In this document: piece after piece, positions 4,820 through 46,984 of the stretch
Layout of the letters: every line of letters begins with the position of its first letter
Numbering within the stretch: the stretch's first letter is position 1
Origin: a virus
Lineage: Duplodnaviria > Caudoviricetes
Length of the DNA: 57,987 bases
Direction: 5' to 3' (one strand)
Virus record (IMG/VR): IMGVR_UViG_3300043411_001582
Span: 1-57,987 of that record
Made by a program: the position numbers and the translations under genes
Notes under the pieces: generated by a model
Seen by the model: only the letters and a program-made list of their open reading frames with translations
What the model was told of the DNA's origin: nothing
Database searches by the model: none

Positions 4820-5365
4820 ATGAAACTAAAAGAATTATTTGAATCTTCAGAAAAATCTATTCTTTCTGAGTATGGTGGACAACCAGAACATAACGTTTTA
4901 GGTTTTGATTGCAGTGATAAAGGCATGACATCTCTTGAGGGTGCGTCAAAATCATATTCATCGGGATTTTATTGTTTTAGCAATCATTTGAAATCTTTAA
5001 AAGGTGCTCCAGAAAAGGTAAATGGTACTTTTGATTGTTGTGATAATCAGATCGATTCTTTAGAATTTGCTCCTTCTTATATTAAAAATGATTTCTACTG
5101 TATAGACAATCAACTTACTAACCTCCATAATATTCATAAGATCATTAAGCACGTTGGTGGTGAAATTCATTTCACCAGCAATCCAATTGTTTCACATGTA
5201 CTTGGTCTCCTTTTGATCGAAGGTGTAACTTATGTTAATCTTGGTGCAAGTGGACCTAAGGGTCTGGTACAAAAAATTATCAACAAGCACTTAGATGAAA
5301 GAGACGTCTTTGCTTGTCAAGAAGAACTGATAGATGCTGGTTTAGAGGAGTTTGCACAATTATGA
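4820..5365 (+). CDS. LRR family paralogue 1
   Basis: MKLKELFE leader, FxCxxNxLxSLxGAP repeats, C-cap RDVFACQEELIDAGLEEFAQL; late promoter CATAAATA 4789-4796. Confidence 0.85.
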   Translation: MKLKELFESSEKSILSEYGGQPEHNVLGFDCSDKGMTSLEGASKSYSSGFYCFSNHLKSLKGAPEKVNGTFDCCDNQIDSLEFAPSYIKNDFYCIDNQLTNLHNIHKIIKHVGGEIHFTSNPIVSHVLGLLLIEGVTYVNLGASGPKGLVQKIINKHLDERDVFACQEELIDAGLEEFAQL

Positions 5366-5955
5366 AAGTACATGAATTATTTGAAGCAAAAGAAAGAAGC
5401 ATTCTTTCTGTAATGGGCAAGCAACCAGAACACGTTGATGGTGATTTCTATTGTTCTGACAATAAGCTTACTTCTCTAGAAGGTGCTCCATCTTCAGTAG
5501 GTGGCAACTTCTCATGTTCTGACAATAAGCTCAAAAATTTAATAGGCGGACCTAAACGTGTAGATGGTGATTTCTTTTGTGGCCGCAATGAATTAGAATC
5601 ATTAGAAGGATCGCCAGAAACTGTAGGGATAGATTTCTATTGTCAGGCTAACAAGTTAAAGTCGTTAGTTGGTATTACAAAAAAAGTAAAAGATTTATGT
5701 GTTAATGGGAACCAATTGACAAACTTACATAACATTCATAAAATGGTTGATATTGATGGAGCTGCAGATTTTCTTGCAAATCCAATAACATCACATGTTC
5801 TCGGTTTATTGATGATGCCAAAATTAGAAGAGGTTTATCTTGATAATGTTAAAGTTCTTAGGATCATTAACAAGCACATTAAAGGAGACAAAGACATCTT
5901 TGCTTGTCAAGAAGAATTAATCGAGGCTGGTCTAGATGACTATGCACAACTATGA
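5362..5955 (+). CDS. LRR family paralogue 2
   Basis: MKVHELFE leader, about 5 LRRs, same C-cap; ATGA overlap with paralogue 1. Confidence 0.85.
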   Translation: MKVHELFEAKERSILSVMGKQPEHVDGDFYCSDNKLTSLEGAPSSVGGNFSCSDNKLKNLIGGPKRVDGDFFCGRNELESLEGSPETVGIDFYCQANKLKSLVGITKKVKDLCVNGNQLTNLHNIHKMVDIDGAADFLANPITSHVLGLLMMPKLEEVYLDNVKVLRIINKHIKGDKDIFACQEELIEAGLDDYAQL

Positions 5956-6518
5956 AAGTACATGAATTATTTGAAGAATCAAAGCCAGATTATTTTAATC
6001 GGCTAGAACAAGAACTAAAAATTAAACGTATTGGTAAAGGTGCTTTTGCCAGAGTCTTTCAGCATCCAACAGAACCTAATATTGCCGTCAAGGTCTTTAC
6101 TGATGAAGATCGTGCATTTAGACACTACTTAAAATTTTGTCAAGCTCATCCTGACAATAAATACTTACCTAAGATTTATAGTGTGGTGAAGCATCGCCAC
6201 AACCCCGCAAAGAAAGACAAAGACTTATCGATAGATGAAATAGTAGATTGGAAATACTCTATTGCCTTTATGGAGAAGTTAAAGCCTGTTACTAAAGAAA
6301 AACTCGTGAAGTTTGTATCAACTTTTGGAATTTATAATAAAGAGTTTGCTGATCTTACTGCAGGTGAATGGAGAATTTTTGCTTATAGGCAAGACGAAGA
6401 TCCAGATCTTGCAGAATTTGCCAAGTACTTGCTTAAAACAAGTTATATGCCAGATCTTCATACACAAAATGTAATGCTACGCGGTAATCAAATTGTTTTC
6501 ATAGACCCTATATCCTAA
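5952..6518 (+). CDS. minimal protein kinase-like protein with MKVHELFE leader
   Basis: GKGAFARV glycine loop, AVK, MEKL hinge, DLHTQNVM catalytic loop, terminal IDP. Confidence 0.8.
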   Translation: MKVHELFEESKPDYFNRLEQELKIKRIGKGAFARVFQHPTEPNIAVKVFTDEDRAFRHYLKFCQAHPDNKYLPKIYSVVKHRHNPAKKDKDLSIDEIVDWKYSIAFMEKLKPVTKEKLVKFVSTFGIYNKEFADLTAGEWRIFAYRQDEDPDLAEFAKYLLKTSYMPDLHTQNVMLRGNQIVFIDPIS

Positions 6519-6519
6519 A

Positions 6520-8385
6520 ATGCCAAACCTTACTACTTGCCCAGATGCAGCAGGTTCATTTAACAATCCAAATGATCCTACAGGCGGAATTACACCACCG
6601 CCTAAAGCTCCATTAAATCCTTACGTTGCACCTGACCTGTGTGTAGGTGATTGGTCACTTACAAATAATACAAGCACCACCGAAGAAAATCTTTATCAAG
6701 AAAGCTTAGCAGCCGAGAATCTGAATATTTCAGGTGCAGAGGTAAATGTGTTCAAGCTTTTAGGTATTCACGAACAAGGCAAATTATTAGATCTGACCGG
6801 TGCTGGTCAGGCTTTAGGCTCTGGTACACCGGCATTAGCCTTTGACGCTTTAGCCAGCGCTTGGGTTTCTACTGAGACAGGTGCAGCAGTTACTCAATCG
6901 GCATATCTTGGATATGACTTTGGTATTAGAAAAACATCTTTCGGCCAGCCTGAAGTTGCACCGGATGCTAATAATACCATGCATATTACTTCTCTTAGAA
7001 TTCAACAGGGAGCTATCGCCACTACGCGCGCTCTTCAAGTTAGAGTAGATCGAAGCAATGGCGGATACAAAATTGATCCATTAAAGATTCAGTTTTCTGG
7101 ATCAGGTACAGGTGGCTTAGGGTCGTTTGTTGCAGGTCCGTCTCCTAAGCCAGGTACCTTTATGGTGACTGCTACATCTTCGACGGTATTCACAGTAATG
7201 TTTACCAGCGCAGCCGGAACCTCTGTTATTGGGATTGCTAATGTTGGGCAGCGATTTAATTCGCCATTAGGTTCATTTACTATTTCTCCTGGTCTTGCAC
7301 CCTTTGCACCTGGTGATATGTTCTCTGCTCCAGTAGAGCTTGAATGGTTTAGAGTTGATGTTGTTAACTTACCAAATGTCCCAACAGCGGCTTTGATCAG
7401 GATTAAACAATCCTCAGCAAGTCGGTATTGGAGATTAGTTCCACTTAGCTTTGCCGGCGTTCTGTCTAATGATTCATGGGTTGTAGAAAAATTAGAGTTA
7501 TTCGACTTCCAACAAACCAGACTTGATGATATTCAGGATACTCTGTATCTTGAGAATCGCGATCGTGACTATGCAAAAGCCTCAATTCATATAAAAGCGG
7601 CATATCAACCTTTTGATGCTACTAGTGATCTTTCTAAATTTGGATTTCAGATCGCCGATATCTTTACCTTTACGGCTAGCTTTGCCACTATAGTTAAAGC
7701 CCTTGGACGTCCAATAGTTGTCGGAGATATTCTAGAGCTTCCAAGTGAAATGCAGTATGATCATAATCTAAGACCAGTTAGAAAGTTCTTAGAAGTGTCT
7801 GATGTAAGCTGGAGTTCTGAAGGGTATACCGCGACATGGAAACCAATTCTTTATAAATTCCAAGCGCAACAATTAATTCCGTCTCAAGAGAATCGTGACA
7901 TTATTGGCACTGCCGATACTCAGAAATACTTGATTGAAGATGGTAAGTTCTTTGAAGGCATTGAGCAAATTCAAACTGCACCGCTAACTGCATCAGAAGC
8001 AAATAAAGCCGATGCTGAAAAAGCCGTTCCAGAAAAAGGAACCAACGTTCGTGAATTAGCTTCTGGCACAAATATTAATGGTGCACCAGGATCATATGAC
8101 GGTCGGCAGTATTTTGTGGAAGATGGACTTCCACCTGATGGAGCACCTTATACTACTGGCTTTAAATTGCCAGATGTTGGAACTGCAACTGACGGTCAGT
8201 TCTTTAGATTAGAGTATGATCCAGCTCTTAATATTGCTGCTAGATTATATAAGTTTAGTGCAATTAAAAACAAGTTTATATTCGTAGAGAGCGACCGTTC
8301 CTCCAAGACTAGTTCTCATAGACCTTCTCAATTAGAAGTCTTAAATAGGACTCAAAACATGTCTCTAACTTCTAAGGTCGTTTAA
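6520..8385 (+). CDS. neck/head-closure protein (gp14-like) with large inserted domains
   Basis: IQDTLYLENRDRDY, DLSKFG, GRPIVVGDILELP motifs; position directly before the gp15-like gene. Confidence 0.65.
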   Translation: MPNLTTCPDAAGSFNNPNDPTGGITPPPKAPLNPYVAPDLCVGDWSLTNNTSTTEENLYQESLAAENLNISGAEVNVFKLLGIHEQGKLLDLTGAGQALGSGTPALAFDALASAWVSTETGAAVTQSAYLGYDFGIRKTSFGQPEVAPDANNTMHITSLRIQQGAIATTRALQVRVDRSNGGYKIDPLKIQFSGSGTGGLGSFVAGPSPKPGTFMVTATSSTVFTVMFTSAAGTSVIGIANVGQRFNSPLGSFTISPGLAPFAPGDMFSAPVELEWFRVDVVNLPNVPTAALIRIKQSSASRYWRLVPLSFAGVLSNDSWVVEKLELFDFQQTRLDDIQDTLYLENRDRDYAKASIHIKAAYQPFDATSDLSKFGFQIADIFTFTASFATIVKALGRPIVVGDILELPSEMQYDHNLRPVRKFLEVSDVSWSSEGYTATWKPILYKFQAQQLIPSQENRDIIGTADTQKYLIEDGKFFEGIEQIQTAPLTASEANKADAEKAVPEKGTNVRELASGTNINGAPGSYDGRQYFVEDGLPPDGAPYTTGFKLPDVGTATDGQFFRLEYDPALNIAARLYKFSAIKNKFIFVESDRSSKTSSHRPSQLEVLNRTQNMSLTSKVV

Positions 8386-12254: not shown

Positions 12255-12261
12255 ACGCAAA

Positions 12262-12285
12262 AATGGGATTCATTTGAATCCCATT
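12262..12285 (+). terminator. stem-loop, probable terminator
   Basis: AATGGGATTC-attt-GAATCCCATT just after the stop codon; weak U tract. Confidence 0.5.
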
Positions 12286-12410
12286 CCTTATTCTCAAACT
12301 AGTGCTATTAAATTAGCGTTGCATTAGATTGGTGTGAGAGTTCATCTTAAAAAATTAGATACATGAATCAAATATCTATAAATAGATAATCATATAAAAT
12401 TAAAAAAATC

Positions 12411-13292: not shown

Positions 13293-13838
13293 TTATTTAT
13301 GAATGAAGCTATTGCACTTTGCCATTAACTGATGGTGAACGTGTTCATTTAAGACTGTTTTTCCATCGTGTCGATCAAGTAAAAACCAGGCTGGACCATA
13401 TTCATGATATTCATCAATGATAGCATTGAATTTATCTTTTGGGATGCTGATTCTATCATCGACAAAGTCTTCTGTTATTTTTTCTCTAGAAAGAAAAATT
13501 TCAAGAACATCGAATCGAGACTTCAATTCTTCATAGTATTTTTTAGATAGTGCCAAATATTCTGGACTGGCATTTCTAAAAATTTTATCATAGACCAGAT
13601 TAGAGACTATGAATCTATCTAAAATATAAGTCTTACGCTTGTCAAGTAATTCAAACATGCTGAATAGCAGTTCAAAATCTTTCTCAGTGTTGATTCGAAG
13701 TAATTCACCAGACGGCAAAGTCTTTTTGAATTTAATTTCTTGAACGCGATCATAATGAAAAAGAAGATCCTGAATGAAGGTGGACTTACAACACTCGTCA
13801 GGCCCATCCAATATAATGAATTTGGTTTTAGCGCCCAT
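13293..13838 (-). CDS. dNMP/thymidylate kinase-like protein
   Basis: IILDGPDECCKST P-loop variant and ILDRF motif; start chosen from GAGAGG SD. Confidence 0.7.
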   Translation of the reverse strand: MGAKTKFIILDGPDECCKSTFIQDLLFHYDRVQEIKFKKTLPSGELLRINTEKDFELLFSMFELLDKRKTYILDRFIVSNLVYDKIFRNASPEYLALSKKYYEELKSRFDVLEIFLSREKITEDFVDDRISIPKDKFNAIIDEYHEYGPAWFLLDRHDGKTVLNEHVHHQLMAKCNSFIHK

Positions 13839-14868: not shown

Positions 14869-14874
14869 AAAATC

Positions 14875-20460: not shown

Positions 20461-20934
20461 ATGAAACTACACGAATTATTTGAAGACCAAGAAAGATCTG
20501 TTCTTTCAGTAATGGGCAAGCAACCAGAACATGTTAATGGCTCCTTCTTTTGTTCTTACAATAAGCTTACTTCTCTGAAAGGCGGCCCATCTTCTGTAGG
20601 TGATGATTTCAATTGTCACGGTAACAATCTGACTTCACTAGAAGGCGCGCCATCTTCGGTAGGTGGTAATTTATCTTGTTTCAACAACAAGCTTACATCT
20701 CTACACAACATCCACAAGCAAATTAAGCACATTGGTGGCTTTGCCACATTTAATGATAATCCGATTACATCTCATGTGCTTGGATTACTTTTGATAGATG
20801 GTTTACAGAAAGTTTTTCTTGATAATATGAAAGTACGTGTCATTATCAATAAACACTTGAAAGGCGATCGAGACATCTTCGCTTGTCAAGAAGAATTGAT
20901 CGAAGCCGATTATGAGGAGTATGCGCAATTATGA
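20461..20934 (+). CDS. LRR family paralogue 3
   Basis: MKLHELFE leader, 3 LRRs, C-cap; late promoter CATAAATA 20431-20438. Confidence 0.85.
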   Translation: MKLHELFEDQERSVLSVMGKQPEHVNGSFFCSYNKLTSLKGGPSSVGDDFNCHGNNLTSLEGAPSSVGGNLSCFNNKLTSLHNIHKQIKHIGGFATFNDNPITSHVLGLLLIDGLQKVFLDNMKVRVIINKHLKGDRDIFACQEELIEADYEEYAQL

Positions 20935-21485
20935 AACTACACGAATTATTTGAAACCACTGGCAAAAGCTTTAGAGACGTCTATGGTGATGAACTCGGCG
21001 AAGAACCCGACCAGTATAATGGAAGTCTCAGCTGCAATAAAATGTCTCTTACTTCTTTAGAAGGCTGCCCAAGGAAGATCATGGGCGATTTCTCATGTTT
21101 TAATAATCAGCTAACGTCATTAAAAGGCGGACCCGAATATGTGGATGATATTTTTACATGTACTAATAATGAGATAGAGACTTTAGAAGGATGTCCGTCT
21201 TATCTTGGCAATGATGCTTATTTTAATCACAACAATCTTACGTCACTTCATAATGTCCATAAGCATATAAAAACGTTAAAAGGGTCATTTATTAGTTTTG
21301 CCAACAATCCAATCAAGTCACATGTGCTAGGATTACTTTTGATCGATGGGTTATATGGAGTAATTCTTGATAACGATGAAGTTAGTGAAATTATTGATAA
21401 GCATTTAGCACCAGACATGCGTGATGTCTTTGCTTGTCAAGAAGAATTGATTGAAGCGGGATATGAGGAGTTTGCACAGCTCTGA
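20931..21485 (+). CDS. LRR family paralogue 4
   Basis: MKLHELFE leader, 4 LRRs, C-cap. Confidence 0.85.
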   Translation: MKLHELFETTGKSFRDVYGDELGEEPDQYNGSLSCNKMSLTSLEGCPRKIMGDFSCFNNQLTSLKGGPEYVDDIFTCTNNEIETLEGCPSYLGNDAYFNHNNLTSLHNVHKHIKTLKGSFISFANNPIKSHVLGLLLIDGLYGVILDNDEVSEIIDKHLAPDMRDVFACQEELIEAGYEEFAQL

Positions 21486-23465: not shown

Positions 23466-23896
23466 AAAAAATGGTTAATCCACTAGATACCTTCTTCGAT
23501 ACTCCGCCTATCGATATAGAAGACAATGCAATTGTGACTACTGAAGGTGCTCTTGCCAATATTCAAGGTACCGAAGCTCCTCCTGAAAAGGATGCTGAAG
23601 ACGTTCAGATTGATAGTAAAATTGATGAAGTATATGATGCAGCTATGCAAGCGTATAATACTCAAACTCAATTTGCTAAAATTCTAGAACCAAGATATGC
23701 GGCACGAAACGGTGAGGTCGCAGCTAACTTTCTAAACATCGCTCTGAATGCTGCCTCGGTTCGTGCTAAAGTCAAAGGCGATCGTAAGAAGAATGCCCAA
23801 TTTATTCCATTCACTAATAACAAAGCCAGCGGAACCGTAGTAGCTTCTAGAGAAGATATTATGAAGATGCTAGCTATCGATGCTGATACAAAATGA
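23462..23896 (+). CDS. putative terminase small subunit
   Basis: EPRYAARNGEVA helix and C-terminal ASREDIMKML resemble gp16-like proteins. Confidence 0.5.
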   Translation: MKKMVNPLDTFFDTPPIDIEDNAIVTTEGALANIQGTEAPPEKDAEDVQIDSKIDEVYDAAMQAYNTQTQFAKILEPRYAARNGEVAANFLNIALNAASVRAKVKGDRKKNAQFIPFTNNKASGTVVASREDIMKMLAIDADTK

Positions 23897-25026
23897 TTAC
23901 TTTCAAACAATTCCTTACTGAAGAATTCCTGATAGAAGCTTCCTCAGGCGAAGCAAAATGGGATAAGTATTTTGGCAATGTAGATGTTGAAACCATTGCT
24001 AAGAATGATTCTAAGCTTTATGATGTCTTTGGGAATTTGGTAGACAAAGAAATAAAGAAAGGCGATACACTTACCGTTCTTGCTGCTGATTACGATACTA
24101 AGCCTAGAATTAGAATCGGCAAGGGCGAGTATAGGATGAAGTTTGCTGACATCGACAAACCATTCAAAATCAATCTTGCTGTTCGTGGTAATTTAAAACC
24201 AGATGTCTTAAAGATCACCGGCAAAATTAAATTGTCAGATTTAAACAAACGGATTAAGAAAGCTATTGATGCTGATTCAGGAATTCCTGATGCGCAAGGA
24301 GAATATCTAAAAGCTTTAGTTGATCTTGCCGAAGATATGGATGATAAAGATTTTGCTGATACAGTAAAAGAATTATTCGAATCCGCCGGAGTAAAGGAAG
24401 ATAAGGCACTTCAAAATACTATCAACAATGATTTTATGGAATGTCTTGGACCATTCTTTGTAGCCGATGAAATGTCTGAATATAAAAATTCAGATGTATT
24501 ATTTCCGACTTCTGGAAGTGAACCGCTATATGACTTCGAAATGATTATTAAAGATCCAACTCAGTTCTCGTCTAAGCGAAGTGGCGGACATTCTAATACT
24601 CTGAAGGCAGCTCAAGTGTTTACTGCTGCATCTAAAGACTCTAAGCTTAAAAAGAAATATTCTAAAGAGCTAGAGCTTCTTAAAATCATCACCGAAAATA
24701 CTGTTCGTAATGCACCTGGTCTAATCAATACCTGGCTTGCTGAAAACTTTAGGGATTATAAAATTGCTCCAGCACCTACAGACAATACTACTATTGCCAG
24801 ACTAGAGGCAGCAGTTGTAAAGTTTATCACCTTACATTCTAAGTTGAATTTTGTACCATTAGTTAAAGAAGCAATTCCGGATCTTTGGTACGTCAAGTCT
24901 AAATTAAAGGCGGATGGGACTATTAAAGTAGAACCTTTAAAGAATGGACGAGACATTGATAAGACAGAATTGAGAAGTAAATCTTCTCCGGGCCATCTGG
25001 CTGATAAGCTTGGATTTGTGGTCTAA
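23893..25026 (+). CDS. putative internal head protein, possible PD-(D/E)xK-like fold
   Basis: MITFKQFLTE leader; FMEC...FP....EPLYDF...SSK pattern. Confidence 0.45.
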   Translation: MITFKQFLTEEFLIEASSGEAKWDKYFGNVDVETIAKNDSKLYDVFGNLVDKEIKKGDTLTVLAADYDTKPRIRIGKGEYRMKFADIDKPFKINLAVRGNLKPDVLKITGKIKLSDLNKRIKKAIDADSGIPDAQGEYLKALVDLAEDMDDKDFADTVKELFESAGVKEDKALQNTINNDFMECLGPFFVADEMSEYKNSDVLFPTSGSEPLYDFEMIIKDPTQFSSKRSGGHSNTLKAAQVFTAASKDSKLKKKYSKELELLKIITENTVRNAPGLINTWLAENFRDYKIAPAPTDNTTIARLEAAVVKFITLHSKLNFVPLVKEAIPDLWYVKSKLKADGTIKVEPLKNGRDIDKTELRSKSSPGHLADKLGFVV

Positions 25027-25075
25027 AGACTTCTTTTTCCAATAAATAAAGAACACATCCATTTGAAAGATTACT

Positions 25076-26629: not shown

Positions 26630-27192
26630 TTACGTTTAAACAATTTCTGTTAGAAATTACGGCCTCCACTAAAGATGGCCATAAAATTACTACTTACTTT
26701 GAAACTGCACAGGGATCAAAATATGTTTTGTCAGAAAAAGGTGAAAGCAAACGAATCAAATCATTACACGACAACACCGGCCCTGATGATGTAGGCCTTA
26801 AAGATTGGATGCAACATTGTGTGTTTGCCGATCCAAAGGATGAAAAGTCGGCTAATGCATTTCAATTTTTAATGAATTATCATGATAACATTTTAATTTC
26901 GGCTAAAAATGGTAAGATTACTTTTATGGTTGTCGATAATAAACAATGGCGAAATGCTACATTTGGGGATGCTTATCCTAAAGCAGCAAAAGAACCTGAA
27001 CATAGCGATAAAAAAGATAATATCCTTTCATTTACCTACGTCAAAGATCCAAAAATGGGTTATCTTTGTGTAGAGTTTGATGTCAGAACAAACCAAACTG
27101 TTTCTAGTTATCATTGCGGTAGCCCAGTATCAAAGATTAAAAAACTTTCTGATATGTCTGAAACAGAGTTAAGAGCATTTCAAACAAAATAA
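26626..27192 (+). CDS. putative internal head protein
   Basis: MITFKQFLLE leader. Confidence 0.55.
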   Translation: MITFKQFLLEITASTKDGHKITTYFETAQGSKYVLSEKGESKRIKSLHDNTGPDDVGLKDWMQHCVFADPKDEKSANAFQFLMNYHDNILISAKNGKITFMVVDNKQWRNATFGDAYPKAAKEPEHSDKKDNILSFTYVKDPKMGYLCVEFDVRTNQTVSSYHCGSPVSKIKKLSDMSETELRAFQTK

Positions 27193-27193
27193 T

Positions 27194-27541
27194 ATGATGA
27201 CCTTTAAACAATTCCTGTTAGAAGCTGTTAAAGGCGATGAAGGCCATTATCCTGAAGATACTTCAGAACGAGCTATGATTCATCGAATCATTCAGTTGAA
27301 TAATCTTGGTGGCAAAACCAAAGAGAACTATGATACGGCATATTCTTTTTTAGAGTCTGACTGGGGTGGTCAACTCTGGGACAAATACTACGAATTGTTC
27401 CATGAGAAGAATCCTAATTTTGAAGGACCAGCCAATATCCGAAGATTTTCTAAGTTCAAGAATGATTGTGTTGCTTGGTTCAACCACTGGAAGAACAATC
27501 GAACATTCAAGGGAACAACTCTAAGTAAACTAGACAACTAA
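27194..27541 (+). CDS. putative internal head protein
   Basis: MMTFKQFLLE leader. Confidence 0.55.
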   Translation: MMTFKQFLLEAVKGDEGHYPEDTSERAMIHRIIQLNNLGGKTKENYDTAYSFLESDWGGQLWDKYYELFHEKNPNFEGPANIRRFSKFKNDCVAWFNHWKNNRTFKGTTLSKLDN

Positions 27542-28303: not shown

Positions 28304-28906
28304 ATGACAACACAACATTTAAAAACCATGCTTCAAGACATCATTAACGATCGTCCTGAACAAGCACAAGCCGCAATGCACGAGTACTTTATTGCTAAGT
28401 CACGTGAGTTGACGGAAGGTAGTTCATCAATGATTAACGAATCATCAGGAGGATCAATTCTTACGGTCTTAGGTAAGCAACCTGAAATATATAATAAATC
28501 ATTTAATTGTTCTGGAAAAAAGCTTACTTCATTAAAAGGGGCTCCAAAGGAAGTAGGCGGCGATTTTGATTGTACCGATAACGAACTTACTTCGCTAGAA
28601 GGAGCACCATCTTCTATTGCACACACTTTTAGATGTGCCGGTAATAATATTGATAATCTTTACAATATTCATAAGATTATTAAACATATTGGCGGTGATG
28701 CTGATTTTAGAAATAATCCAATTAACTCGCACATACTCGGATTATTTCATATAGGCGGGCTTGAAAGAGTATGGCTTAATCACAAAGGTGTTCAAGAAAT
28801 TGTTAATAAGTGTTTAGCTTTAAAGCCTGGTTCAGAGGTGGATAAGATTGATCGTTGTAGGGGTGAATTGATTGCCCATAACCTTGATGACTTTGCCAAG
28901 CTGTAA
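28304..28906 (+). CDS. LRR family paralogue 5, with a different (prohead-core-like) N-terminal helix
   Basis: ATG after AAGGA SD; MTTQHLKTMLQDIIND...HEYFIAKSRELTE...INE, then SILTVLGKQPE, 3 LRRs and a divergent C-cap. Confidence 0.8.
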   Translation: MTTQHLKTMLQDIINDRPEQAQAAMHEYFIAKSRELTEGSSSMINESSGGSILTVLGKQPEIYNKSFNCSGKKLTSLKGAPKEVGGDFDCTDNELTSLEGAPSSIAHTFRCAGNNIDNLYNIHKIIKHIGGDADFRNNPINSHILGLFHIGGLERVWLNHKGVQEIVNKCLALKPGSEVDKIDRCRGELIAHNLDDFAKL

Positions 28907-29005: not shown

Positions 29006-29446
29006 ATGATTGAAATAGATGGCTCATGTTATGAAACCTACATTAGGATAGATCAAGATCATCCAACATTAGCTTCTGCTTGTAGATTAATTCCAAATCA
29101 TGTTAAGATAAATTATGACTTGATTATTAGAGACAATAATCTATCGTCTCTAAAAGGTATTTCTCCAAGAGTTGGACATAATCTTTGGGCGGCAAGAAAC
29201 AATCTCACTTCACTTCATAACATACATAAACACTTAAAATATGTTGGGATTTCAATTGGATTTAAACACAATCCTATCAAATCGCATGTTCTCGGATTAC
29301 TTTTGATAGACGGTCTTCAAAAAATCTTCTTAGATAATAAAGAAGTAGAAGACATTATCAATAAACATCTGAAGAACGGTAGAGACATCTTCGCTTGCCA
29401 AGAAGAATTAATTGAATCAGGTTTTGAAGATTTTGCTCAGTTGTAG
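29006..29446 (+). CDS. LRR family paralogue 6 (no ELFE leader)
   Basis: 2 LRRs, LHNIHK, SHVLGLLLIDGL, C-cap. Confidence 0.8.
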   Translation: MIEIDGSCYETYIRIDQDHPTLASACRLIPNHVKINYDLIIRDNNLSSLKGISPRVGHNLWAARNNLTSLHNIHKHLKYVGISIGFKHNPIKSHVLGLLLIDGLQKIFLDNKEVEDIINKHLKNGRDIFACQEELIESGFEDFAQL

Positions 29447-29684: not shown

Positions 29685-32201
29685 ATGACAAACGAATTTA
29701 AAGTATCTAATAATGTAGTTGCCAAAACCAGCATGGTTGAACGCATACTAGCAAATAGAGAAGAAAATAGTTCTTCAACAGTTGGTATGTTACTCGCCGG
29801 AGATCCAGGAACCGGCAAAACATCTTTTGTCAGATTTTTGGCTCATCTTTTAGGTATGCAACTTATAGTAATTGAAGCTCCACATATTACTGAAGAACAT
29901 ATTATCAATATCCCATTTATTGTTTTTAATGACGATAATTCACCAGGGGTTAAAGGGGAGCAAAAAGTTGAAGAACATGGACCAACTATCGAATTAGCCG
30001 ATAGTTATTTATTCTCTCAATTAAATAGGGCCAAAGGTATTGATGATTCAACTTTGCTGAAGAATATCTATAAAGGACATGACCAATATCAACACGTTTG
30101 GGAAGAACTTGGCGGTGATGAAACTACCATACCAGAGCCAGTTGCCGAATTTCGCGCTCATACCAAGGTGATGTTATTTATTGATGAGTTCTTCCGCAAT
30201 CCATCAAATAGAATTAAGAATATTTTGCGTGGTATTCTAAATGGCAAATTAGGCACACATAGTCTTCCGCAAAATGCGTATGTTATTTATGCATCAAATC
30301 TTAAAGATGAAGGTGTAACGGATATTCCGAAAAACACAGATTTTGTAAAAATTAAGCTTGAAGTTCCTGACAAAGATGAATGGTTCTCTTGGCTCGTGAA
30401 TAAGTATAAAGACTCAGAAGAAGTTCATTTAAATATGGACATTATTAATGCTTTCTATAAACTTCTTAAGCAAGAGCATTTGAGTTCACACGATTTAGAG
30501 GCCAATGTTCGTGCTTCGCCACGTTCATGGGAACAAATTTTACTTTATATCAATAGCTCTTTACCTGCTGAAAATGAGAAGGATGCAAAATCGTTAATTT
30601 CAAATATTAGATCTAAATTCTCTAATTATCAAACAGGTGAAGAACATACGATTGCGGCTGGTGTTTTAGATGTAGTTTCTAAATTGATTAAAGAAACTAG
30701 TGATTTTGAAGTTGGTACTGCTGGTAATACTGAAGAAGAATGGCGTTCCACTTTTGAACACCAAATTAAACAGAAAATGAAACTTGGTAATGCACGAACT
30801 TATGTACCAATTGTTTCAGGCCCTCCTGGGATCGGAAAGACTTCGGAGATGGCACTTACTGCATTGAATTTAGATCTTCGCTATATCTATGTTGATTGCT
30901 CTACGTTAGATCCAGAAATGACCTTGGGCATCCCACTGCCAGATAATCCAAAGGGGTCAAAGACGAGAGCCGTACGATTTTCCTTCCCGCAGCTATATAC
31001 TCAGATAATGAACGATATTGCTAAAGAGGACGCGGCACATATCAAGAATATGTCATCCGCTGAAAAGAAAGCTTATTCTAAAAAGAAATACAAGTACATG
31101 ATTTTCTTTGATGAATTTAATCGTACTTCTGTAAAAGTCTTCAACGGGCTTCGTCGTGTTCTGCTTGAAAAAGATTTTGGTCCAGGACTTGAACTTCCGG
31201 ATGAAGCCATTATGGTCGCCGCCATTAATCCAACAGATGTTGGAACACAAGAGTTGACCATGCACATGCGTGACGTGGTTGATATTATTGATTCCCAACC
31301 AAGCTGGAAGTTGGCATTAGGATTTATTGATAAACTCAAAGTTAAAGCATTACCTGTTGCACTTGAAACTGCAAAGAACACCGTTATTAAGATGATGCTC
31401 AATTTTAAAGAGACCGATCCAAAGAGATCTGCCGATCAGCGTCCATTCTATATGGGTATGGGTGAAACACCTTTGTATGTTTCACCGCGCGAAATAGTTA
31501 CCATGATCAGAAATACGGCCAGAGTTCTTTCTTTGAAACTTAACAATAAACGGTTGAAAGCAATGATCGAGACTGATGATGTAGAACAACGCAAACAGGC
31601 CTTCGATGCCTTGGCTTTGGCCACTTTTACGACGATAGATGGTGTTTTGTCTATTGGTATGGATAAACAAGGTATTGATGCACCAGAGTTCCTGCACGAT
31701 TTAGAAAACTGGATTCATGAACATCTTGACGTAGCCGGTATCTTTGTAAAGAAGAATAAGACACTCGGGCTAGAATCTATTATTGATCCGTACTTTGGCG
31801 ATTCTAAAAAGGATATGACCAAAGAACTCGAGTTGATTAATTATGTCGAAGGCAATGACATTCAAGTCTTCAAGGATGAATTGAGTCAATATCTGGTCGA
31901 GAAGCTTAAAAATGATAAAACTCATTTGACAAACAAGAAGCATCATATCCGCGGGATTGCTGATGGTAAACTTACTAAAGACGAAAACGTTTTAGTTTCT
32001 AACCTGGAACATCTCGTACGTGATATAATCTTAGCATTCAAGGTTAATAAGGTTAGCTCTGAAATGTTTGATGGTGTTAAGTTTGCAACTCGTGATGCTT
32101 TGAAAGAACTTATTCGAGTTCTTAAAGAAGCCGATGAGGGTGATCTTAATGCTGAAGCAGTTGAATTGAATGGGCGTTTGTTTAGATTGTTTAAGGCTTG
32201 A
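29685..32201 (+). CDS. tandem double AAA+ ATPase (MoxR/dynein-related type)
   Basis: two Walker A (GDPGTGKT, GPPGIGKT), two Walker B (FIDEF, FFDEF), two SPR sensor motifs. Confidence 0.85.
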   Translation: MTNEFKVSNNVVAKTSMVERILANREENSSSTVGMLLAGDPGTGKTSFVRFLAHLLGMQLIVIEAPHITEEHIINIPFIVFNDDNSPGVKGEQKVEEHGPTIELADSYLFSQLNRAKGIDDSTLLKNIYKGHDQYQHVWEELGGDETTIPEPVAEFRAHTKVMLFIDEFFRNPSNRIKNILRGILNGKLGTHSLPQNAYVIYASNLKDEGVTDIPKNTDFVKIKLEVPDKDEWFSWLVNKYKDSEEVHLNMDIINAFYKLLKQEHLSSHDLEANVRASPRSWEQILLYINSSLPAENEKDAKSLISNIRSKFSNYQTGEEHTIAAGVLDVVSKLIKETSDFEVGTAGNTEEEWRSTFEHQIKQKMKLGNARTYVPIVSGPPGIGKTSEMALTALNLDLRYIYVDCSTLDPEMTLGIPLPDNPKGSKTRAVRFSFPQLYTQIMNDIAKEDAAHIKNMSSAEKKAYSKKKYKYMIFFDEFNRTSVKVFNGLRRVLLEKDFGPGLELPDEAIMVAAINPTDVGTQELTMHMRDVVDIIDSQPSWKLALGFIDKLKVKALPVALETAKNTVIKMMLNFKETDPKRSADQRPFYMGMGETPLYVSPREIVTMIRNTARVLSLKLNNKRLKAMIETDDVEQRKQAFDALALATFTTIDGVLSIGMDKQGIDAPEFLHDLENWIHEHLDVAGIFVKKNKTLGLESIIDPYFGDSKKDMTKELELINYVEGNDIQVFKDELSQYLVEKLKNDKTHLTNKKHHIRGIADGKLTKDENVLVSNLEHLVRDIILAFKVNKVSSEMFDGVKFATRDALKELIRVLKEADEGDLNAEAVELNGRLFRLFKA

Positions 32202-32204: not shown

Positions 32205-32816
32205 ATGAAAGTATCTGATTTATTTGAAGCCGAAGAAAAAAGCATCTTGTCTGTAATGGGCAAACAAGAAGATCAGGTCGCTGGTGACTTTTCTTGTTAC
32301 AACAATAATCTTACGTCTCTAGAAGGCTCGCCAAAAGAAGTAGGTGGCATTTTCTTTTGTTCCTACAATAATCTTACGTCTCTAGAAGGCTCGCCAAAAG
32401 AAGTAGGTGGCAACTTTTCTTGTTACCACAATAAGCTTACGTCTCTAGAAGGCTCGCCAAAAGAAGTAGGTGGCAACTTTGACTGTTCCTACAATAATCT
32501 TACGTCTCTAGAAGGCTCGCCAAAAGAAGTAGGTGGCAACTTTGACTGTTCCTGCAATAAGCTTACGTCTCTTCGTAATATTCATAAGCATGTAAAGAAG
32601 ATGATTGGTGAAGCCAATTTTGAAGATAATAATATTAAGTCTTGTGTTCTTGGATTACTTTTAATAGATGGATTAACAGTAGTACTTCTTAAAAATAAGA
32701 AAGTACAGAAGATTATCAATAAACACTTGAAAGGTGATCGTAAAGGTGATCGAGACATCTTTGCTTGTCAAGAAGAATTAATTGAACATGGATATGATGA
32801 GTTTGCAAAACTATAG
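32205..32816 (+). CDS. LRR family paralogue 7 with near-perfect internal tandem repeats
   Basis: MKVSDLFE leader, 5 LRRs, C-cap. Confidence 0.9.
   Translation: MKVSDLFEAEEKSILSVMGKQEDQVAGDFSCYNNNLTSLEGSPKEVGGIFFCSYNNLTSLEGSPKEVGGNFSCYHNKLTSLEGSPKEVGGNFDCSYNNLTSLEGSPKEVGGNFDCSCNKLTSLRNIHKHVKKMIGEANFEDNNIKSCVLGLLLIDGLTVVLLKNKKVQKIINKHLKGDRKGDRDIFACQEELIEHGYDEFAKL
32283..32572 (+). repeat. 63-bp in-frame tandem repeat, about 4.6 units
   Basis: identical 40-nt block CTTACGTCTCTAGAAGGCTCGCCAAAAGAAGTAGGTGGCA at 32310, 32373, 32436, 32499. Confidence 0.95.
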
Positions 32817-32826: not shown

Positions 32827-34572
32827 ATGGCTAATCTCGCCTCAAAAATTAAAGCCGATATCGGCGTAGTCAAATTTCTAAAGTCTGCTTGGACCGACAA
32901 AAATATTTCTGACTCTCTTGATCTTATTGCAAAAGAACAAAAGGTTACTGTTCAAGATGTAAAAGATAAAATTCAGAAAAAGATTGATGAATTTCAAGAC
33001 ATCGCAAAATATTCTAAAATGCTTTATGAAACTATTGCATTGAATATTATCGAGTCTGAAATCTTCAATATGCTTACTGACCTTACTCATAAGGCCGAAG
33101 AAGAACAGAAATTTGATCCAGCCACATTTATGGCGTTGATTCGTGCTGTCAAGGCAGAGCATGCTCGATTTTTTCCGCTTCGCAATTTTTCTGATTCTAA
33201 GCATCTACACAATCCTCGCTGGATTCTTGTGCCGAGTGATAAAGAAGAAAACAAAAAATACAACAGCATCACTACTGCTGCTGCAACTCCAAAAGGCGAG
33301 TTTATTTTCTGTGTACCTTTCATGCAGAAACTTTTAGACTATGCACGAATTAAAGGTCTACAACCAAAGAGTAAAAAGTATTCTAATAACGGTGGTCCAT
33401 TTCCACCAGGCTATGCGTATATTGAATTTCTGATCATTCATGAATTGCTTCACTATACTCAGTCGGACTTTCATTACGGAAAGATCTACAAAGAAGTAAG
33501 TCCACAACTCCTTAATTGGGTCGGCGACTTCAGGTCTAATTACGAATTAGTAAAGGGTGGATACGAACAACTCCCAATCGGACTTTATAGCGATCATATC
33601 AACTATGATCGTCAGAACACCTATAAAGAAATGATCGATATTGTCAAAGCCGAGATGGATAAGCTTCCTAAGAAGGAACAGGACAAAGTCAAGCAACAGA
33701 TGGATGAGATGACCGATGAACACGGCGAAGGCGAAGAGGAAGAAGGCGAAGGTCCTGACATGGAAGGCAAGGAAGGCGAGGTCGATAAAGCTGGAAAAGC
33801 TACCAGCAAAGCCATGGGCGAAAAGAAAGATTCTAAAGGTGAAGGTGAAGGCGAAGGTGGTGATAAACCTTCTGACAAAAAAGGTTCTCAACCTGGCAAA
33901 GGTAATGTTACTACAACTTCTAAGTTTGATCCTTCATCTATTAAGCCAAGATATTCTTGGCGCGATCTGATTTCTAAGGCTGTTAAGAGCTCTGCCGAAA
34001 CCGAAGAAACTTACATGAAGCCGAATCGTCGTGGCATTACCGGTGCAGTACTTGCACACACCCGTGGTTCAGCAGCTGTAAAGCCTGGTGATATTGAGAC
34101 TCAAGTCAATGTCAAGCTATTAGTTATTGTCGATTCGTCTGGATCAATGGGAAGTGAACTTGGCAAGGTCTATGCTAATATTAAAAATCTTTTGAGCAAT
34201 CGCGAAGTTGGACACACGTTCTTGTTGACTAGATTCTCTGATGTATTTGATGAATGGGCATGTAATGTCAAGACTGATAAGGCTGTTAATACTGAAGATA
34301 AAAAAGTAGATAAAGTCTCTCATGTCTTTACCACCACCTACGGTGGTGGAACACAATTACAAGCTGATATGGTAGAACAAGCCAGACAACGTATGTCTAA
34401 AGGATATAATGTACTATTCTTTAGTGATACCGATGTATTGGCCTCTTCAAACTTCACTCAATTGAAAGCTCTGCTTGACATGAAAGCTTTTGTAATCTTT
34501 GATAGCAAAGCCACATTTGAACAAGCCGTTGGAAAATTAAAATCAGTTCCATTTGGTATGTCACACTTATGA
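32827..34572 (+). CDS. HExxH metallopeptidase-like + vWA domain protein (DUF2201-like architecture)
   Basis: TAAAT, HELLH, N..GD..SN, acidic/Gly linker, W..L, VIVDSSGSM MIDAS, GGGT, SD. Confidence 0.85.
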   Translation: MANLASKIKADIGVVKFLKSAWTDKNISDSLDLIAKEQKVTVQDVKDKIQKKIDEFQDIAKYSKMLYETIALNIIESEIFNMLTDLTHKAEEEQKFDPATFMALIRAVKAEHARFFPLRNFSDSKHLHNPRWILVPSDKEENKKYNSITTAAATPKGEFIFCVPFMQKLLDYARIKGLQPKSKKYSNNGGPFPPGYAYIEFLIIHELLHYTQSDFHYGKIYKEVSPQLLNWVGDFRSNYELVKGGYEQLPIGLYSDHINYDRQNTYKEMIDIVKAEMDKLPKKEQDKVKQQMDEMTDEHGEGEEEEGEGPDMEGKEGEVDKAGKATSKAMGEKKDSKGEGEGEGGDKPSDKKGSQPGKGNVTTTSKFDPSSIKPRYSWRDLISKAVKSSAETEETYMKPNRRGITGAVLAHTRGSAAVKPGDIETQVNVKLLVIVDSSGSMGSELGKVYANIKNLLSNREVGHTFLLTRFSDVFDEWACNVKTDKAVNTEDKKVDKVSHVFTTTYGGGTQLQADMVEQARQRMSKGYNVLFFSDTDVLASSNFTQLKALLDMKAFVIFDSKATFEQAVGKLKSVPFGMSHL

Positions 34573-35105
34573 AAGTATCTGAATTATTTGAAGAGACAGA
34601 AAGATCAGTGACGTCTGTGATGGGACAGCAACCAGAACATATAGCACGTGATTTCTTTTGTAGTTACAACAAGCTTACTTCTCTGAAAGGTGCTCCAATA
34701 TCTATAGACGGAAATTTCAATTGCAGTAATAATAATCTCACATCATTAAAAGGTGGACCTACCTCTGTTAGTGGTTATTACTATTGTTATGAAAATAGCT
34801 TAACTTCTTTAGAAGGGTTACCTTCTTCAATGGACAGTTTATCCATTTCATGTAATAAGATTACGTCACTTCACAACATCCATAAGATTATTAAACGAAT
34901 AAACGGGGCTGCAAATTTTAGTAATAATCCAATTAAGTCACATCTATTAGGTTTACTTCTAATAGATGGGTTAACTAAAATTTGGTTTGATGATAACTGG
35001 CCATTAGTTAGAATTATTAACAAGCACTTACAAGGCGAACGAGACATCTTTGCTTGTCAAGAAGAGCTAATTGAGAATGGCTTTGAGGTCTTTGCGCAAT
35101 TATGA
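34569..35105 (+). CDS. LRR family paralogue 8
   Basis: MKVSELFE leader, 4 LRRs, C-cap. Confidence 0.85.
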   Translation: MKVSELFEETERSVTSVMGQQPEHIARDFFCSYNKLTSLKGAPISIDGNFNCSNNNLTSLKGGPTSVSGYYYCYENSLTSLEGLPSSMDSLSISCNKITSLHNIHKIIKRINGAANFSNNPIKSHLLGLLLIDGLTKIWFDDNWPLVRIINKHLQGERDIFACQEELIENGFEVFAQL

Positions 35106-38120: not shown

Positions 38121-38594
38121 ATGAAAGTAAGTGAATTATTTGAAGACGAAGAAAGAAGTGTCTTATCTGTAATGGGACAGCGGCCAGAACACTGTTATGG
38201 TAATTTTCGTTGTTCAGATAAAGATATTGAATCGTTAAAAGGGGCACCTAAATCAGTGTCTCACTCAGTATTTTGTTCTAGAAATAAATTTTCTTCGTTG
38301 GATGGTGTACCTTCTGAAATAGGCGATAACTTATATTTTGAGTACAACAATTTGACCACACTTCATAATATTCATAAGTACATTAAAAAGATTGGGAATG
38401 TTGCTGATTTCAGATGGAATCCCATCACCTCGCATGTACTTGGGCTACTTCTAATAGATGGTCTGAAGGTATGTTTTCTTGACAATACGAAAGTAGAAGT
38501 CATTATCAATAAGCATCTGAAAGGCGAACGAGATGTCTTCGCATGTCAAGAAGAATTAATTGAAAATGGATTTGAGGACTTTGCGCAATTATGA
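38121..38594 (+). CDS. LRR family paralogue 9
   Basis: MKVSELFE leader, 3 LRRs, C-cap; late promoter GATAAATA 38094-38101. Confidence 0.85.
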   Translation: MKVSELFEDEERSVLSVMGQRPEHCYGNFRCSDKDIESLKGAPKSVSHSVFCSRNKFSSLDGVPSEIGDNLYFEYNNLTTLHNIHKYIKKIGNVADFRWNPITSHVLGLLLIDGLKVCFLDNTKVEVIINKHLKGERDVFACQEELIENGFEDFAQL

Positions 38595-39061
38595 AATTAC
38601 AAGAATTATTTGAAGAAGAAAGAAGTGTTCTTTCGGTCTGTGGTCGATTTCCAAGGGTGTTTACCGGAATATTTGTTGCCAACAATATAGAGCTGACATC
38701 TTTGAAAGGATCTCCTGAAGAGATAATAGGCGACTTTGATTGTAGTGCTAATTATCTGACTTCATTAGAAGGTGCTCCATCTTCAATAGGCGGTAATTTC
38801 GTATGTGATTATAATGCTATTACTTCATTACATAATATCCATAAGCAAATTAAATATATTGGAGGATATGCAAATTTCGAATATAATCCAATTAAGTCAC
38901 ATGTACTTGGATTACTTCTAATAAAAGGATTAAAGTATGTTTATCTAACCAACGGAAAAGTGGCAGACATTATTGATAAGCATCTATCTGGTGATCGAGA
39001 TGTCTTCGCTTGTCAAGAAGAATTGATTGAAGCTGGTTTTGAGGACTATGCACAATTATGA
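38591..39061 (+). CDS. LRR family paralogue 10
   Basis: MKLQELFE leader, 3 LRRs, C-cap. Confidence 0.85.
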   Translation: MKLQELFEEERSVLSVCGRFPRVFTGIFVANNIELTSLKGSPEEIIGDFDCSANYLTSLEGAPSSIGGNFVCDYNAITSLHNIHKQIKYIGGYANFEYNPIKSHVLGLLLIKGLKYVYLTNGKVADIIDKHLSGDRDVFACQEELIEAGFEDYAQL

Positions 39062-39531
39062 AGGTGCACGAATTATTTGAAGCTGAAGAAAGAAGTGTTC
39101 TTTCGGTAATGGGAAAGCAAAAAGAACATTACATTGGTGAATACTCTTGTTCTAGGCGTTTTCTAACCTCATTAAAAGGTGCACCAACATCAATAGACGG
39201 TAAATTCTATTGTATGGATAATAAGATTACTTCCCTAGAAGGTGCACCGTCTTCAATAGAAGGTAATTTCTATTGTACAAAAAACAAGCTTACTTCTTTA
39301 CACAATATCCACAAGCACATTAAACATATTCGAGCCTTTGCGGGTTTTGGCAATAACCCGATTACTTCCCATGTCCTTGGTCTACTTCTAATAGATGGTC
39401 TTAAGGGAGTTTATCTTGATAATAACGAAGTAACAGACATTATATGTAAGCACTTACAAGGCGATCGAGATGTATTTGCCTGTCAAGAAGAATTGATTAA
39501 TGCTGGATATGAGGACTTTGCTCAATTATGA
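39058..39531 (+). CDS. LRR family paralogue 11
   Basis: MKVHELFE leader, 3 LRRs, C-cap. Confidence 0.85.
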   Translation: MKVHELFEAEERSVLSVMGKQKEHYIGEYSCSRRFLTSLKGAPTSIDGKFYCMDNKITSLEGAPSSIEGNFYCTKNKLTSLHNIHKHIKHIRAFAGFGNNPITSHVLGLLLIDGLKGVYLDNNEVTDIICKHLQGDRDVFACQEELINAGYEDFAQL

Positions 39532-40014
39532 AAGTACACGAATTATTCGAACAAGAAGAAAGATCTGTTCTTTCTGTAATGGGCAAGCAACCAGAACTAA
39601 AAACTTCATCTTTCTTTTGTAATAACAAAGCCCTAACCTCTTTAAATGGATCACCTTCTACAGTCGCGGGTGATTTTGAATGTTTTAACAATGAGCTCAC
39701 TTCATTAGAAGGTATTGCATCTCATATAAGTGGTAACCTAACATGTTATAATAACGCATATCTTACATCTTTACATAACATCCATAAACAAATTAAACAT
39801 ATCGGACGAGAGGCTAATTTTTTGGAATTGTCCAATTACTTCACATGTGCTTGGATTACTTCTGATTGATGGACTTAAGGCAGCTTTTTTCTCTCAAGGG
39901 TGGAATGACGAGCTTCAAACAATTATTAACAAACACTTAGCCGGCGAACGTGACGTCTTTGCTTGTCAAGAAGAATTAATCGAAAATGGTCTAGAGGACT
40001 TTGCTCAATTGTAA
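39528..40014 (+). pseudogene. LRR family paralogue 12, frameshifted at a T6 run (39818-39823)
   Basis: removing one T restores ANFWNCPITSHVLGLLLIDG...RDVFACQEELIENGLEDFAQL-stop. Confidence 0.85.
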
Positions 40015-41255: not shown

Positions 41256-41332
41256 TTTTCTACGCACTCTATCTGTTTGTTACTTTTATTATTTTTTATT
41301 TTTATCTAACTAAAGGTGATTATGATGTCTAA
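41252..41332 (+). CDS. 26-aa hydrophobic micropeptide (not in ORF track)
   Basis: ATGA overlap with upstream stop; MIFYALYLFVTFIIFYFYLTKGDYDV. Confidence 0.45.
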   Translation: MIFYALYLFVTFIIFYFYLTKGDYDV

Positions 41333-41654: not shown

Positions 41655-41656
41655 GA

Positions 41657-44324: not shown

Positions 44325-44343
44325 TGTAAGAGAAAATTGAGAG

Positions 44344-44370
44344 ATGTACCTACCATAAAGGTAGGTACAT
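44344..44370 (+). promoter_or_regulatory. 11-bp hairpin covering the probable SD of the downstream endonuclease
   Basis: ATGTACCTACC-ataaa-GGTAGGTACAT, 6 nt before ATG 44377. Confidence 0.65.
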
Positions 44371-44376
44371 AAAATC

Positions 44377-46300: not shown

Positions 46301-46304
46301 TCCT

Positions 46305-46337
46305 ATTATACTACCTAACCAAAAAAGGTAGTATAAT
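46305..46337. promoter_or_regulatory. 12-bp inverted repeat carrying TATAAT in each arm
   Basis: ATTATACTACCT-N9-AGGTAGTATAAT right after the uvsX stop. Confidence 0.55.
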
Positions 46338-46365
46338 GCTCTATCTCTTATAAAGGAATTTTATC

Positions 46366-46545
46366 ATGCAAAATGCAACTATTACTATCCAAATGGTCAA
46401 AGGCGGTTATGTAGTCGAAACAGTCGCTGAAGATACAAATACTGAAGTCTTTACTTCTACTGCAAAGATGTTTCGCGCCGTTCGTGCTGCTGTTGACGAG
46501 TTCACCTTGGTTCCTAAGAAATCAGCAGATAAAGACGAAGATTGA
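46366..46545 (+). CDS. 59-aa hypothetical protein (not in ORF track)
   Basis: AAAGGA SD; MQNATITIQMVKGGYVVETVAED...KDED-stop. Confidence 0.7.
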   Translation: MQNATITIQMVKGGYVVETVAEDTNTEVFTSTAKMFRAVRAAVDEFTLVPKKSADKDED

Positions 46546-46558
46546 ATGGATTTTTGAG

Positions 46559-46984
46559 ATGGCGACTCCTATAGCTTATCAAGGCAACTGGAATTATTCT
46601 AGAAATGAACTTTACACATTAGGCCTCGAAAATATACCGAGTCGTATTTCTGGTTATTTCTATTGTTCTGTCAACAAGCTTACTTCTTTGGAAGGTGCAC
46701 CATCTTCTATAGGCGGAGATCTAGATTGTTTTAGTAACTGTCTTTCGTCCCTTCATAATATCCACAAACAGATTAAACATATCGGTGGCTATGCTGATTT
46801 CCGTAAAAATCCAATCACCTCTTGTGTCCTAGGATTACTTTTGATAGATGGATTAGAGAAGGTTTATCTTAACACGAATGGAGTAGAAGACATTATCAAT
46901 AAGCACCTAAAAGGCGATCGAGATGTCTTCGCTTGTCAAGAAGAACTGATCGAAGCGGGATATGAAGAATTTACACAATTATGA
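46559..46984 (+). CDS. LRR family paralogue 13 (no ELFE leader) inside the recombination operon
   Basis: LRRs and C-cap; first in-frame ATG, start uncertain; ATGA overlap with uvsY. Confidence 0.75.
   Translation: MATPIAYQGNWNYSRNELYTLGLENIPSRISGYFYCSVNKLTSLEGAPSSIGGDLDCFSNCLSSLHNIHKQIKHIGGYADFRKNPITSCVLGLLLIDGLEKVYLNTNGVEDIINKHLKGDRDVFACQEELIEAGYEEFTQL

Follow-up and report, generated by a model that had tools for sequence, protein, structure and literature searches.

A virus fragment of 57,987 nucleotides (nt), IMG/VR record IMGVR_UViG_3300043411_001582 and called the window here, carries 13 paralogous genes for leucine-rich repeat (LRR) proteins that share a conserved C-terminal module and vary strongly on one strand face. 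The explanation that we prefer, with a probability of about 0.58, is that these proteins are made late in infection, loaded into the phage head by a T4-type leader, clipped and ejected, and that they use the variable face to bind different host factors. Beyond the preliminary description, the analysis brought out the leader and its virion evidence, a wider family most of whose members have no canonical repeat, and a link to an AAA/VWA gene pair. The 58-kb window is part of the genome of a T4-like jumbo myophage and encodes a head-tail adaptor, a sheath stabiliser, the sheath, tail tubes, the terminase and a gp32-type single-stranded DNA-binding protein (SSB), and no tRNAs were found in it. The closest cultured phage by terminase is Ralstonia phage RsoM2USA (47%), followed by XacN1 (41%). 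Since the completeness of the record is estimated at 19%, 13 copies are a minimum. Near-identical DNA is listed for sequencing runs from freshwater, wastewater and sludge, four of which were compared with the window; no RNA run is among the runs listed.

All 13 genes are + strand open reading frames (ORFs) with a 21-residue repeat, starting where the preliminary description had placed them, and a profile search of the record found the same 13 places and none besides, with E-values of 1e-57 to 1e-85 for the intact copies. The proteins have 141-203 residues and end about 76 residues past the last repeat. Twelve genes are intact and one, 39528 (genes are named by their start), is frameshifted at a run of six T (39818-39823); its C-terminal block is present out of frame and ends at 40014. 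A Logan contig over 39568-39971 matches the window with 0 differences and 0 gaps; it comes from run X1, which may be the source sample. The break is hence not limited to the output of a single assembler. Some details of the preliminary description need correction: summed from coordinates, the family takes up about 6.7 kb instead of about 7 kb, and both the 2-5 repeats per gene and the conserved C-terminal cap apply to 12 of the 13 genes, because 39528 has one repeat by pattern (three by eye) and its ORF ends before the C-terminal block. The common N-terminus was rightly assigned to most copies; 28304, 29006 and 46559 are without it. Ten of the 13 proteins start with M-K-(V/L)-x-(E/D)-L-F-E, which we call the leader. 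The family members are:

4820..5365 (+): LRR member with leader and 4 repeats; late-promoter-like TAAATA 29 nt upstream
5362..5955 (+): LRR member with leader and 5 repeats; mosaic
20461..20934 (+): LRR member with leader and 3 repeats; structure modelled; TAAATA 28 nt upstream
20931..21485 (+): LRR member with leader and 3-4 repeats
28304..28906 (+): LRR member with a different N-terminal module and a divergent C-terminal module
29006..29446 (+): LRR member with 2 repeats and no leader; the AAA gene starts 239 nt downstream
32205..32816 (+): LRR member with 5 near-identical repeats, between the AAA and VWA genes
34569..35105 (+): LRR member with leader and 4 repeats; overlaps the VWA stop codon
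38121..38594 (+): LRR member with leader and TAAATA 25 nt upstream; opens a tandem array of four genes
38591..39061 (+): LRR member with leader
39058..39531 (+): LRR member with leader and 3 repeats
39528..40014 (+): broken LRR member; ORF stops at 39869, C-terminal module in another frame
46559..46984 (+): LRR member among recombination genes, without leader and without upstream TAAATA

The proteins are an LRR family, and neither IpaH-type ligases nor a somatic system like the lamprey variable lymphocyte receptors (VLRs). The LRR fold was borne out by the repeat profile, by a confident model and by the LRR proteins at the top of the structure searches. The AlphaFold model of 20461 (mean predicted local distance difference test, pLDDT, 93.9; predicted template modelling score 0.86) is an LRR solenoid closed by helices, in which leader residues 1-10 have a pLDDT of 52 against >90 elsewhere. 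Foldseek found no match to it in the PDB at E <= 0.001, the best LRR matches having E 0.06-0.2, and the best VIA structural match has Z 10.9, which is middling for repeats (root mean square deviation 3.4, 117 aligned). BFVD holds four matches at E <= 0.001, all unnamed, with lengths of 288, 253, 236 and 288; judged by their equal lengths, these are probably the four RsoM2USA members described below.

No curated family of Pfam, PHROGs or NCBIfam reaches its cut-off for the LRR paralogues and no named anti-defence family was matched there. The Pfam LRR_4 match stays below the cut-off and NCBIfam gives InlJ as weak matches only, far below it. For the NEL ligase family there is no Pfam match, and the NCBIfam matches are weak. 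In the ESM Atlas the C-terminal 78 residues have unnamed neighbours, in clusters that are 82-100% viral, and one of them is just 88 residues long. A literature search, with most subscription journals outside its coverage, found no paper describing the family. PMC10945359 deals with an unrelated tail protein. The earlier statement that no characterised phage system with this architecture is known is supported in that no described family was matched.

In LRR proteins, the strand positions around F-x-C form the concave face of the solenoid. We took positions 4, 6, 8 and 9 of the 21-residue repeat (around F-x-C, before N) as the face, from this geometry and not from exposure in coordinates. The variation is concentrated at these positions, as the preliminary description has it, and they are enriched in aromatic residues. 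Across 268 distinct internal repeats the mean entropy is 3.05 bits at the face and 1.97 bits at eight other non-core sites, and Y/F/W/H make up 25.8% of the residues at face sites against 1.9% at the other non-core sites. Close homologues show the same contrast. In 21 disjoint pairs of 75-99% identity, taken from 123 sequences, 171 of 372 face sites (46%) differ, compared with 100 of 659 other exposed repeat sites (15%), 41 of 795 core sites, 122 of 1598 sites of the C-terminal module (8%) and 42 of 635 sites of the N-terminus. Face sites thus differ three times as often as other exposed sites, in pairs whose sites are non-independent and where shuffled repeats may inflate the contrast. The repeats of 32205 differ from each other mainly at face positions, with proportions of nonsynonymous (pN) and synonymous (pS) differences of 0.376 and 0.138 at the face. 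In 14 repeat pairs from 4 genes the face values are pN 0.445 and pS 0.187 (about 0.26 within face codons). This excess of pN over pS suggests diversifying selection, in a sample that is small and non-independent.

The leader connects the family with the phage head. A leader pattern matches 10 of the 13 paralogues but only 6 of 61 other window ORFs. In related loci it matches 134 of 216 ORFs of the family and 119 of 1582 others, and in RsoM2USA 20 of 486 ORFs against 4.5 in shuffles. A protein kinase gene at 5952 starts with the same leader and shares 25 identical bases with the LRR genes. Three other window ORFs (23893, 26626 and 27194) and many relatives have a longer form, and long and short types alternate among the paralogues of one array. 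For comparison, the starts of IPI, IPII/III and Alt were taken from the T4 record. In T4, residues 4 and 7 serve targeting, residues 8 and 10 processing, and cleavage follows L/I-x-E (PMC9026906). ORF89 of RsoM2USA starts with this T4 pattern (aromatic residue 4, F7, L8-x-E10), and it shares the exact T4 register with 23893, 26626 and 27194.

The member 28304 has a 38-residue N-terminal module (28304-28420) instead, which is homologous to a 50-residue RsoM2USA ORF between the portal and the prohead protease (E 2e-08, 14 of 38 residues identical). The module is also found at L001:5162 and L003:3905, with 91-97% identical DNA, so that it is fused to three different downstream sequences in the window, L001 and L003; the L003 copy lies two genes past a prohead-protease-like ORF.

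All three cluster heads (4820, 20461 and 38121), which cover 8 of the 13 genes, are preceded at 25-29 nt by TAAATA, the core of the T4 late promoter. TAAATA also precedes neck, sheath and tube genes, and is not found before ssb, recA and the ribonucleotide reductase genes.

The virion evidence comes from RsoM2USA. ORF89 and the AAA protein ORF86 are among ten bands of purified virions, with band identities given as 'most likely' (PMC8504454). The mass of ORF89 is 28.56 computed and 28.57 reported. Two of the ten bands, ORF89 and ORF132, start with the long leader, which are too few for a test. ORF132 (L035:7582-9606) is the second virion-reported protein with a long leader. Head packaging is thus supported by the analogy of the leader motif and by one homologue. 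The features of the window next to the family that bear on its leader and neighbourhood are:

5952..6518 (+): protein kinase (phrog_15752) with family-type leader, sharing its first 25 nt with 5362; candidate injected kinase
23893..27541 (+): block with three candidate head proteins outside the family (ORFs 23893, 26626 and 27194), each starting with all 10 residues of a T4-type leader
29685..32201 (+): double-AAA (MoxR-like) ATPase, homologue of RsoM2USA ORF86, which is reported in virions
32827..34572 (+): DUF2201_N metallopeptidase and VWA protein

Under the preferred explanation, each family member would be made late in infection. Its short N-terminal leader would load it into the prohead; there the leader would be cut off after L-x-E by the prohead protease, and the protein would then probably be ejected with the DNA. 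The LRR face, which differs between paralogues, would bind a factor of the host, with a defence or regulatory protein as the most plausible candidate. The conserved C-terminal module would cap the solenoid and perhaps serve a function common to the members. Gene duplication, gain and loss of 21-residue repeats and exchange of segments between paralogues would create new specificities. The data establish the anatomy, the fold model, the variable face, the mosaicism and the lineage-specific expansion; cleavage, ejection, targets and the anti-defence role are the steps that we infer.

Several observations weigh against this explanation. The short leader of the LRR genes is one residue off the T4 register, by inspection it is not a letter-for-letter match to T4 IPI, IPII or IPIII, its pattern was written after the sequences had been seen, and it is absent from 3 paralogues and from 82 of the 216 wider members. 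ATAAATA is not enriched across the window (27 against 21.4 expected), so only its position is informative. The virion evidence is one homologue in one study, with about 35% mean identity in the C-terminal part, and the list of 'most likely' bands also holds a putative transposase (PMC8504454). Packaging is no proof of ejection, and a folded LRR protein may be wide for the tail channel. No target emerged for any family member. Finally, in the dN/dS comparison proposed in the preliminary description, pN/pS is above 1 only in the small, non-independent sample of repeats; for all pairs at face sites of the window it is 0.94 and saturated, and positive selection is not formally established.

The LRR-rich form in the window is one branch of a wider family, which is defined by the conserved C-terminal module and most members of which are without canonical repeats. 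A profile of the last 62 residues found 216 distinct ORFs in related loci. In 214 of them the protein ends with the module, and a Q (0.91), an A (0.98) and the terminal L (0.90) are conserved. Two or more strict repeats are found in 13 of the 216 ORFs, one in 21 and none in 182. For one such G018 member without canonical repeats, the single-sequence fold has a pLDDT of 40 and the ESM Atlas matches are <0.9. RsoM2USA has 4 copies, G004 at least 16, G005 at least 17, G032 at least 28 and G018 at least 36, the last four counts coming from parts of those genomes. Long tandem arrays are found in G005 (L019, G005:1-12000; 17 members), G018 (L131-L133; 36) and G032 (L134-L135; 28), with highly diverse middles and mostly without canonical repeats. 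Of the 22 terminase-selected records, 12 (5-70% complete) were searched for members, and none of these 12 gave a match. This absence and the varied copy number indicate an accessory, repeatedly expanded family.

In RsoM2USA the module is carried by ORF88-90 and by a fourth copy at 47.3-48.0 kb, all annotated as hypothetical, and ORF89 is homologous to the family with an hhalign E-value of 3e-14. Neither ORF88 nor the word leucine is mentioned in the PMC8504454 main text. Eight phage records are matched by 20461, and only the RsoM2USA match covers the C-terminal module; the other seven match the repeats only (query residues up to 104) and were not counted as members. A metagenome scan gave 1 distant locus, and a GTDB scan, a weak one with two patterns only, gave no relative among 51 pattern matches.

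The family is also linked to an AAA/VWA gene pair. The order in the window is member, member, small ORF, double AAA, member, peptidase-VWA, member. In the peptidase-VWA protein, H205, E206 and H209 of the HExxH motif and the metal ion-dependent adhesion site (MIDAS) residues D436, S438, S440, T509 and D534 are invariant in 95 sequences. Of 39 loci selected by their VWA gene, 25 (16 of 25 distinct groups) have a family member at a distance of at most 10 kb from that gene; among 22 terminase loci the count is 0. In 12 of the 25 distinct groups a member is within one ORF of the AAA or VWA gene, and in G023, G030 and G035 the single family match of the record is the one near the VWA gene. The double AAA was found in 1 of 50,697 phage records, that of RsoM2USA. 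In L081, L086, L087 and L089 a member with a Cys/His N-terminal motif and a Pro/Ala/Thr-rich linker lies just upstream of the AAA gene, possibly the founding member.

This linkage raises the question of an adaptor library, in which the C-terminal module would dock on the double-AAA ATPase or the metallopeptidase-VWA protein and the variable part would recruit host proteins, which would be unfolded or cleaved, in analogy to F-box/LRR or poxvirus ankyrin-PRANC adaptors. We regard this as unlikely; it is compatible with head packaging. Apart from the linkage to the VWA gene described above, it is favoured by the fact that the double AAA and the C-terminal module both match RsoM2USA only among phage records, by the presence of ORF86 and ORF89 in the same list of virion bands (PMC8504454) and by the module itself. 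The module is terminal nearly throughout the family, persists in members that have no canonical repeats and usually has its closest relative in its own genome (28 of 28 members in G032, 32 of 36 in G018, 10 of 12 in the window). However, no member was found in 7 of 18 VWA-bearing records, including two that are 85-87% complete, and the linkage may only mean that late or virion genes are inherited as one block. Ordinary LRR caps (U2A', SDS22 and ANP32) align with the first half of the module, and a role in virion assembly is proposed for the MoxR/vWA-peptidase pairs of jumbo phages (PMC7824862). A shade more doubtful still is the combined form, a head-packed library of up to dozens of adaptors, each with leader, hypervariable binder and constant C-terminal tag, that would act together with the double-AAA unfoldase and the metallopeptidase-VWA protein after ejection for programmable proteolysis or remodelling of host defence proteins. 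The AAA+/peptidase link makes adaptor-directed proteolysis by a phage conceivable.

That the members are head-packaged or late proteins with a structural, assembly or filler role, or clients of the AAA/VWA chaperone, appears quite improbable to us. The variability would then reflect relaxed constraint and easy repeat recombination, which agrees with the late-promoter context, the one broken copy, the three copies without leader, a dN/dS >1 that is not firmly established and the assignment of the AAA/VWA pair to assembly in PMC7824862. Change is, however, confined to one face (46% against 15% at other exposed sites and 8% in the C-terminal module), this face is rich in aromatic residues, and the copy number ranges from 0 to at least 36 among related phages.

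Very unlikely in our judgement are outward or anti-rival binders, i.e. surface adhesins or superinfection-exclusion factors against other phages. A variable aromatic face, structural neighbours that include internalins and Leptospira LRR proteins, and the InlJ matches far below the NCBIfam cut-off would fit such a role, but the leader resembles an internal-protein targeting signal and is common to a kinase, no hydrophobic signal or anchor segment is apparent by inspection and the proteins have only 141-203 residues.

As to how the diversity arises, alleles differ in multiples of 21 residues (20461 and P0019; 32205 and P0032, the latter being an allele of 32205 with one repeat fewer). The gene 5362 is a mosaic, with its first 45 residues identical to P0006 and an 82-residue middle identical to P0086, and window paralogues share exact tracts of 22-30 nt. 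The C-terminal module is nearest to that of a same-genome sister not only in the window, G032 and G018, in the proportions given above, but also in 15 of 17 members of G005; this is rarer in G004 (5 of 16) and RsoM2USA (0 of 3). Repeat-number alleles, mosaics and within-genome nearest modules together point to duplication, to exchange of segments and to an accordion-like change in repeat number. Contig joints between paralogues at 85% likeness are ambiguous and were not used as proof of recombination. At a short repeat (41278-41313), contigs break in run X1. A diversity-generating retroelement with the family as its target is hardly credible and was rejected as largely refuted: face residues are rich in D, S, N, Y and F, and C or T is the last base of 133 of 160 face codons, but the reverse transcriptase profile PF00078 had no match in any of 5 records (controls positive in 3 of 14), among them two complete family-bearing genomes, one being that of RsoM2USA, with the window's own record just 19% complete, and A is involved in only 38 of 68 base differences at face codons. 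The term 'antibody-like' used in the preliminary description is overstated, since the genes are fixed germline paralogues reshuffled between strains, with no reverse transcriptase in these 5 records.

Other genes of the window include about seven homing-endonuclease-like genes (3244, 11304, 16688, 19073, 35490, 44377 and 49490), of which 3244 and 19073 were called by profile and the other five by inspection. The LRR cluster heads 4820 and 20461 each come directly after such a gene. Genes for a thymidylate-synthase homologue, a protein of phrog_3891 (unknown) and a thymidylate-kinase homologue form one operon at 13293-15642 on the - strand, which may encode a DNA base-modification pathway; if present, it would make modification-dependent nucleases likely targets. 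An alpha/beta hydrolase (PGAP1-like) is encoded at 12411-13286, and upstream of it, within 12258-12334, about 59 nt recur in L001 and L030 with 93-98% identity. A Dps/ferritin-like protein (phrog_858) is encoded at 27547-27903.

If the proteins are head-loaded binders of host factors, they would give jumbo phages without a protective nucleus a way to meet many defences at entry, with one loading signal, one scaffold and a single face diversified by recombination. Hundreds of genes annotated as hypothetical would become a testable pool of candidate anti-defence proteins, their partners would point to host defence components, and the leader would serve as a sequence rule for predicting head cargo in uncultured T4-like phages.

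Among known systems, the IpaH/SspH/YopM proteins, internalins and lamprey VLRs share the LRR solenoid with the family and lead the structural searches. The IpaH/SspH ligases carry an NEL domain, whereas the family has neither an NEL ligase domain nor a secretion signal, and its repeat differs from bacterial-type LRRs by an extra residue and a Cys ladder. Lamprey VLRs are assembled somatically, unlike the family genes. The ankyrin-PRANC adaptors of poxviruses and the F-box/LRR adaptors are expanded families with a variable repeat face and a constant terminal module, which need host ubiquitin ligases; the likeness is an analogy only and we claim no homology. The MoxR/vWA-peptidase pairs described in jumbo phages (PMC7824862) resemble the window in that a T4-like jumbo phage has its AAA gene next to one for a peptidase-vWA protein, but the window ATPase has two AAA modules; LRR, leucine-rich and RsoM2USA have 0 mentions in the main text of that paper. 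The RsoM2USA members resemble those of the window in the C-terminal module, the leaders and the position beside the AAA/VWA pair, and differ in number and repeats: RsoM2USA has 4 copies whose repeats are degenerate, and the window, a 19% fragment, has 13 whose repeats are canonical.

The closest comparison is with the T4 internal proteins, which are diverse with only the targeting sequence conserved, and of which IPI* inhibits GmrSD (PMC3012670). IPI, IPII, IPIII and Alt have, like the family, a short leader with hydrophobic residues at i/i+3 and L/I-x-E, and diverse cargo behind it. Both groups vary between phages, and the T4 proteins are non-essential. The T4 internal proteins are a few unrelated proteins, whereas the family is one scaffold expanded to at least 13 copies with a shared C-terminal module, a hypervariable LRR face and a leader one residue shorter. 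By this analogy, in manner of working rather than by proven membership, the family would most likely be a modular expansion of the T4 internal-protein (IPI*) strategy on one scaffold.

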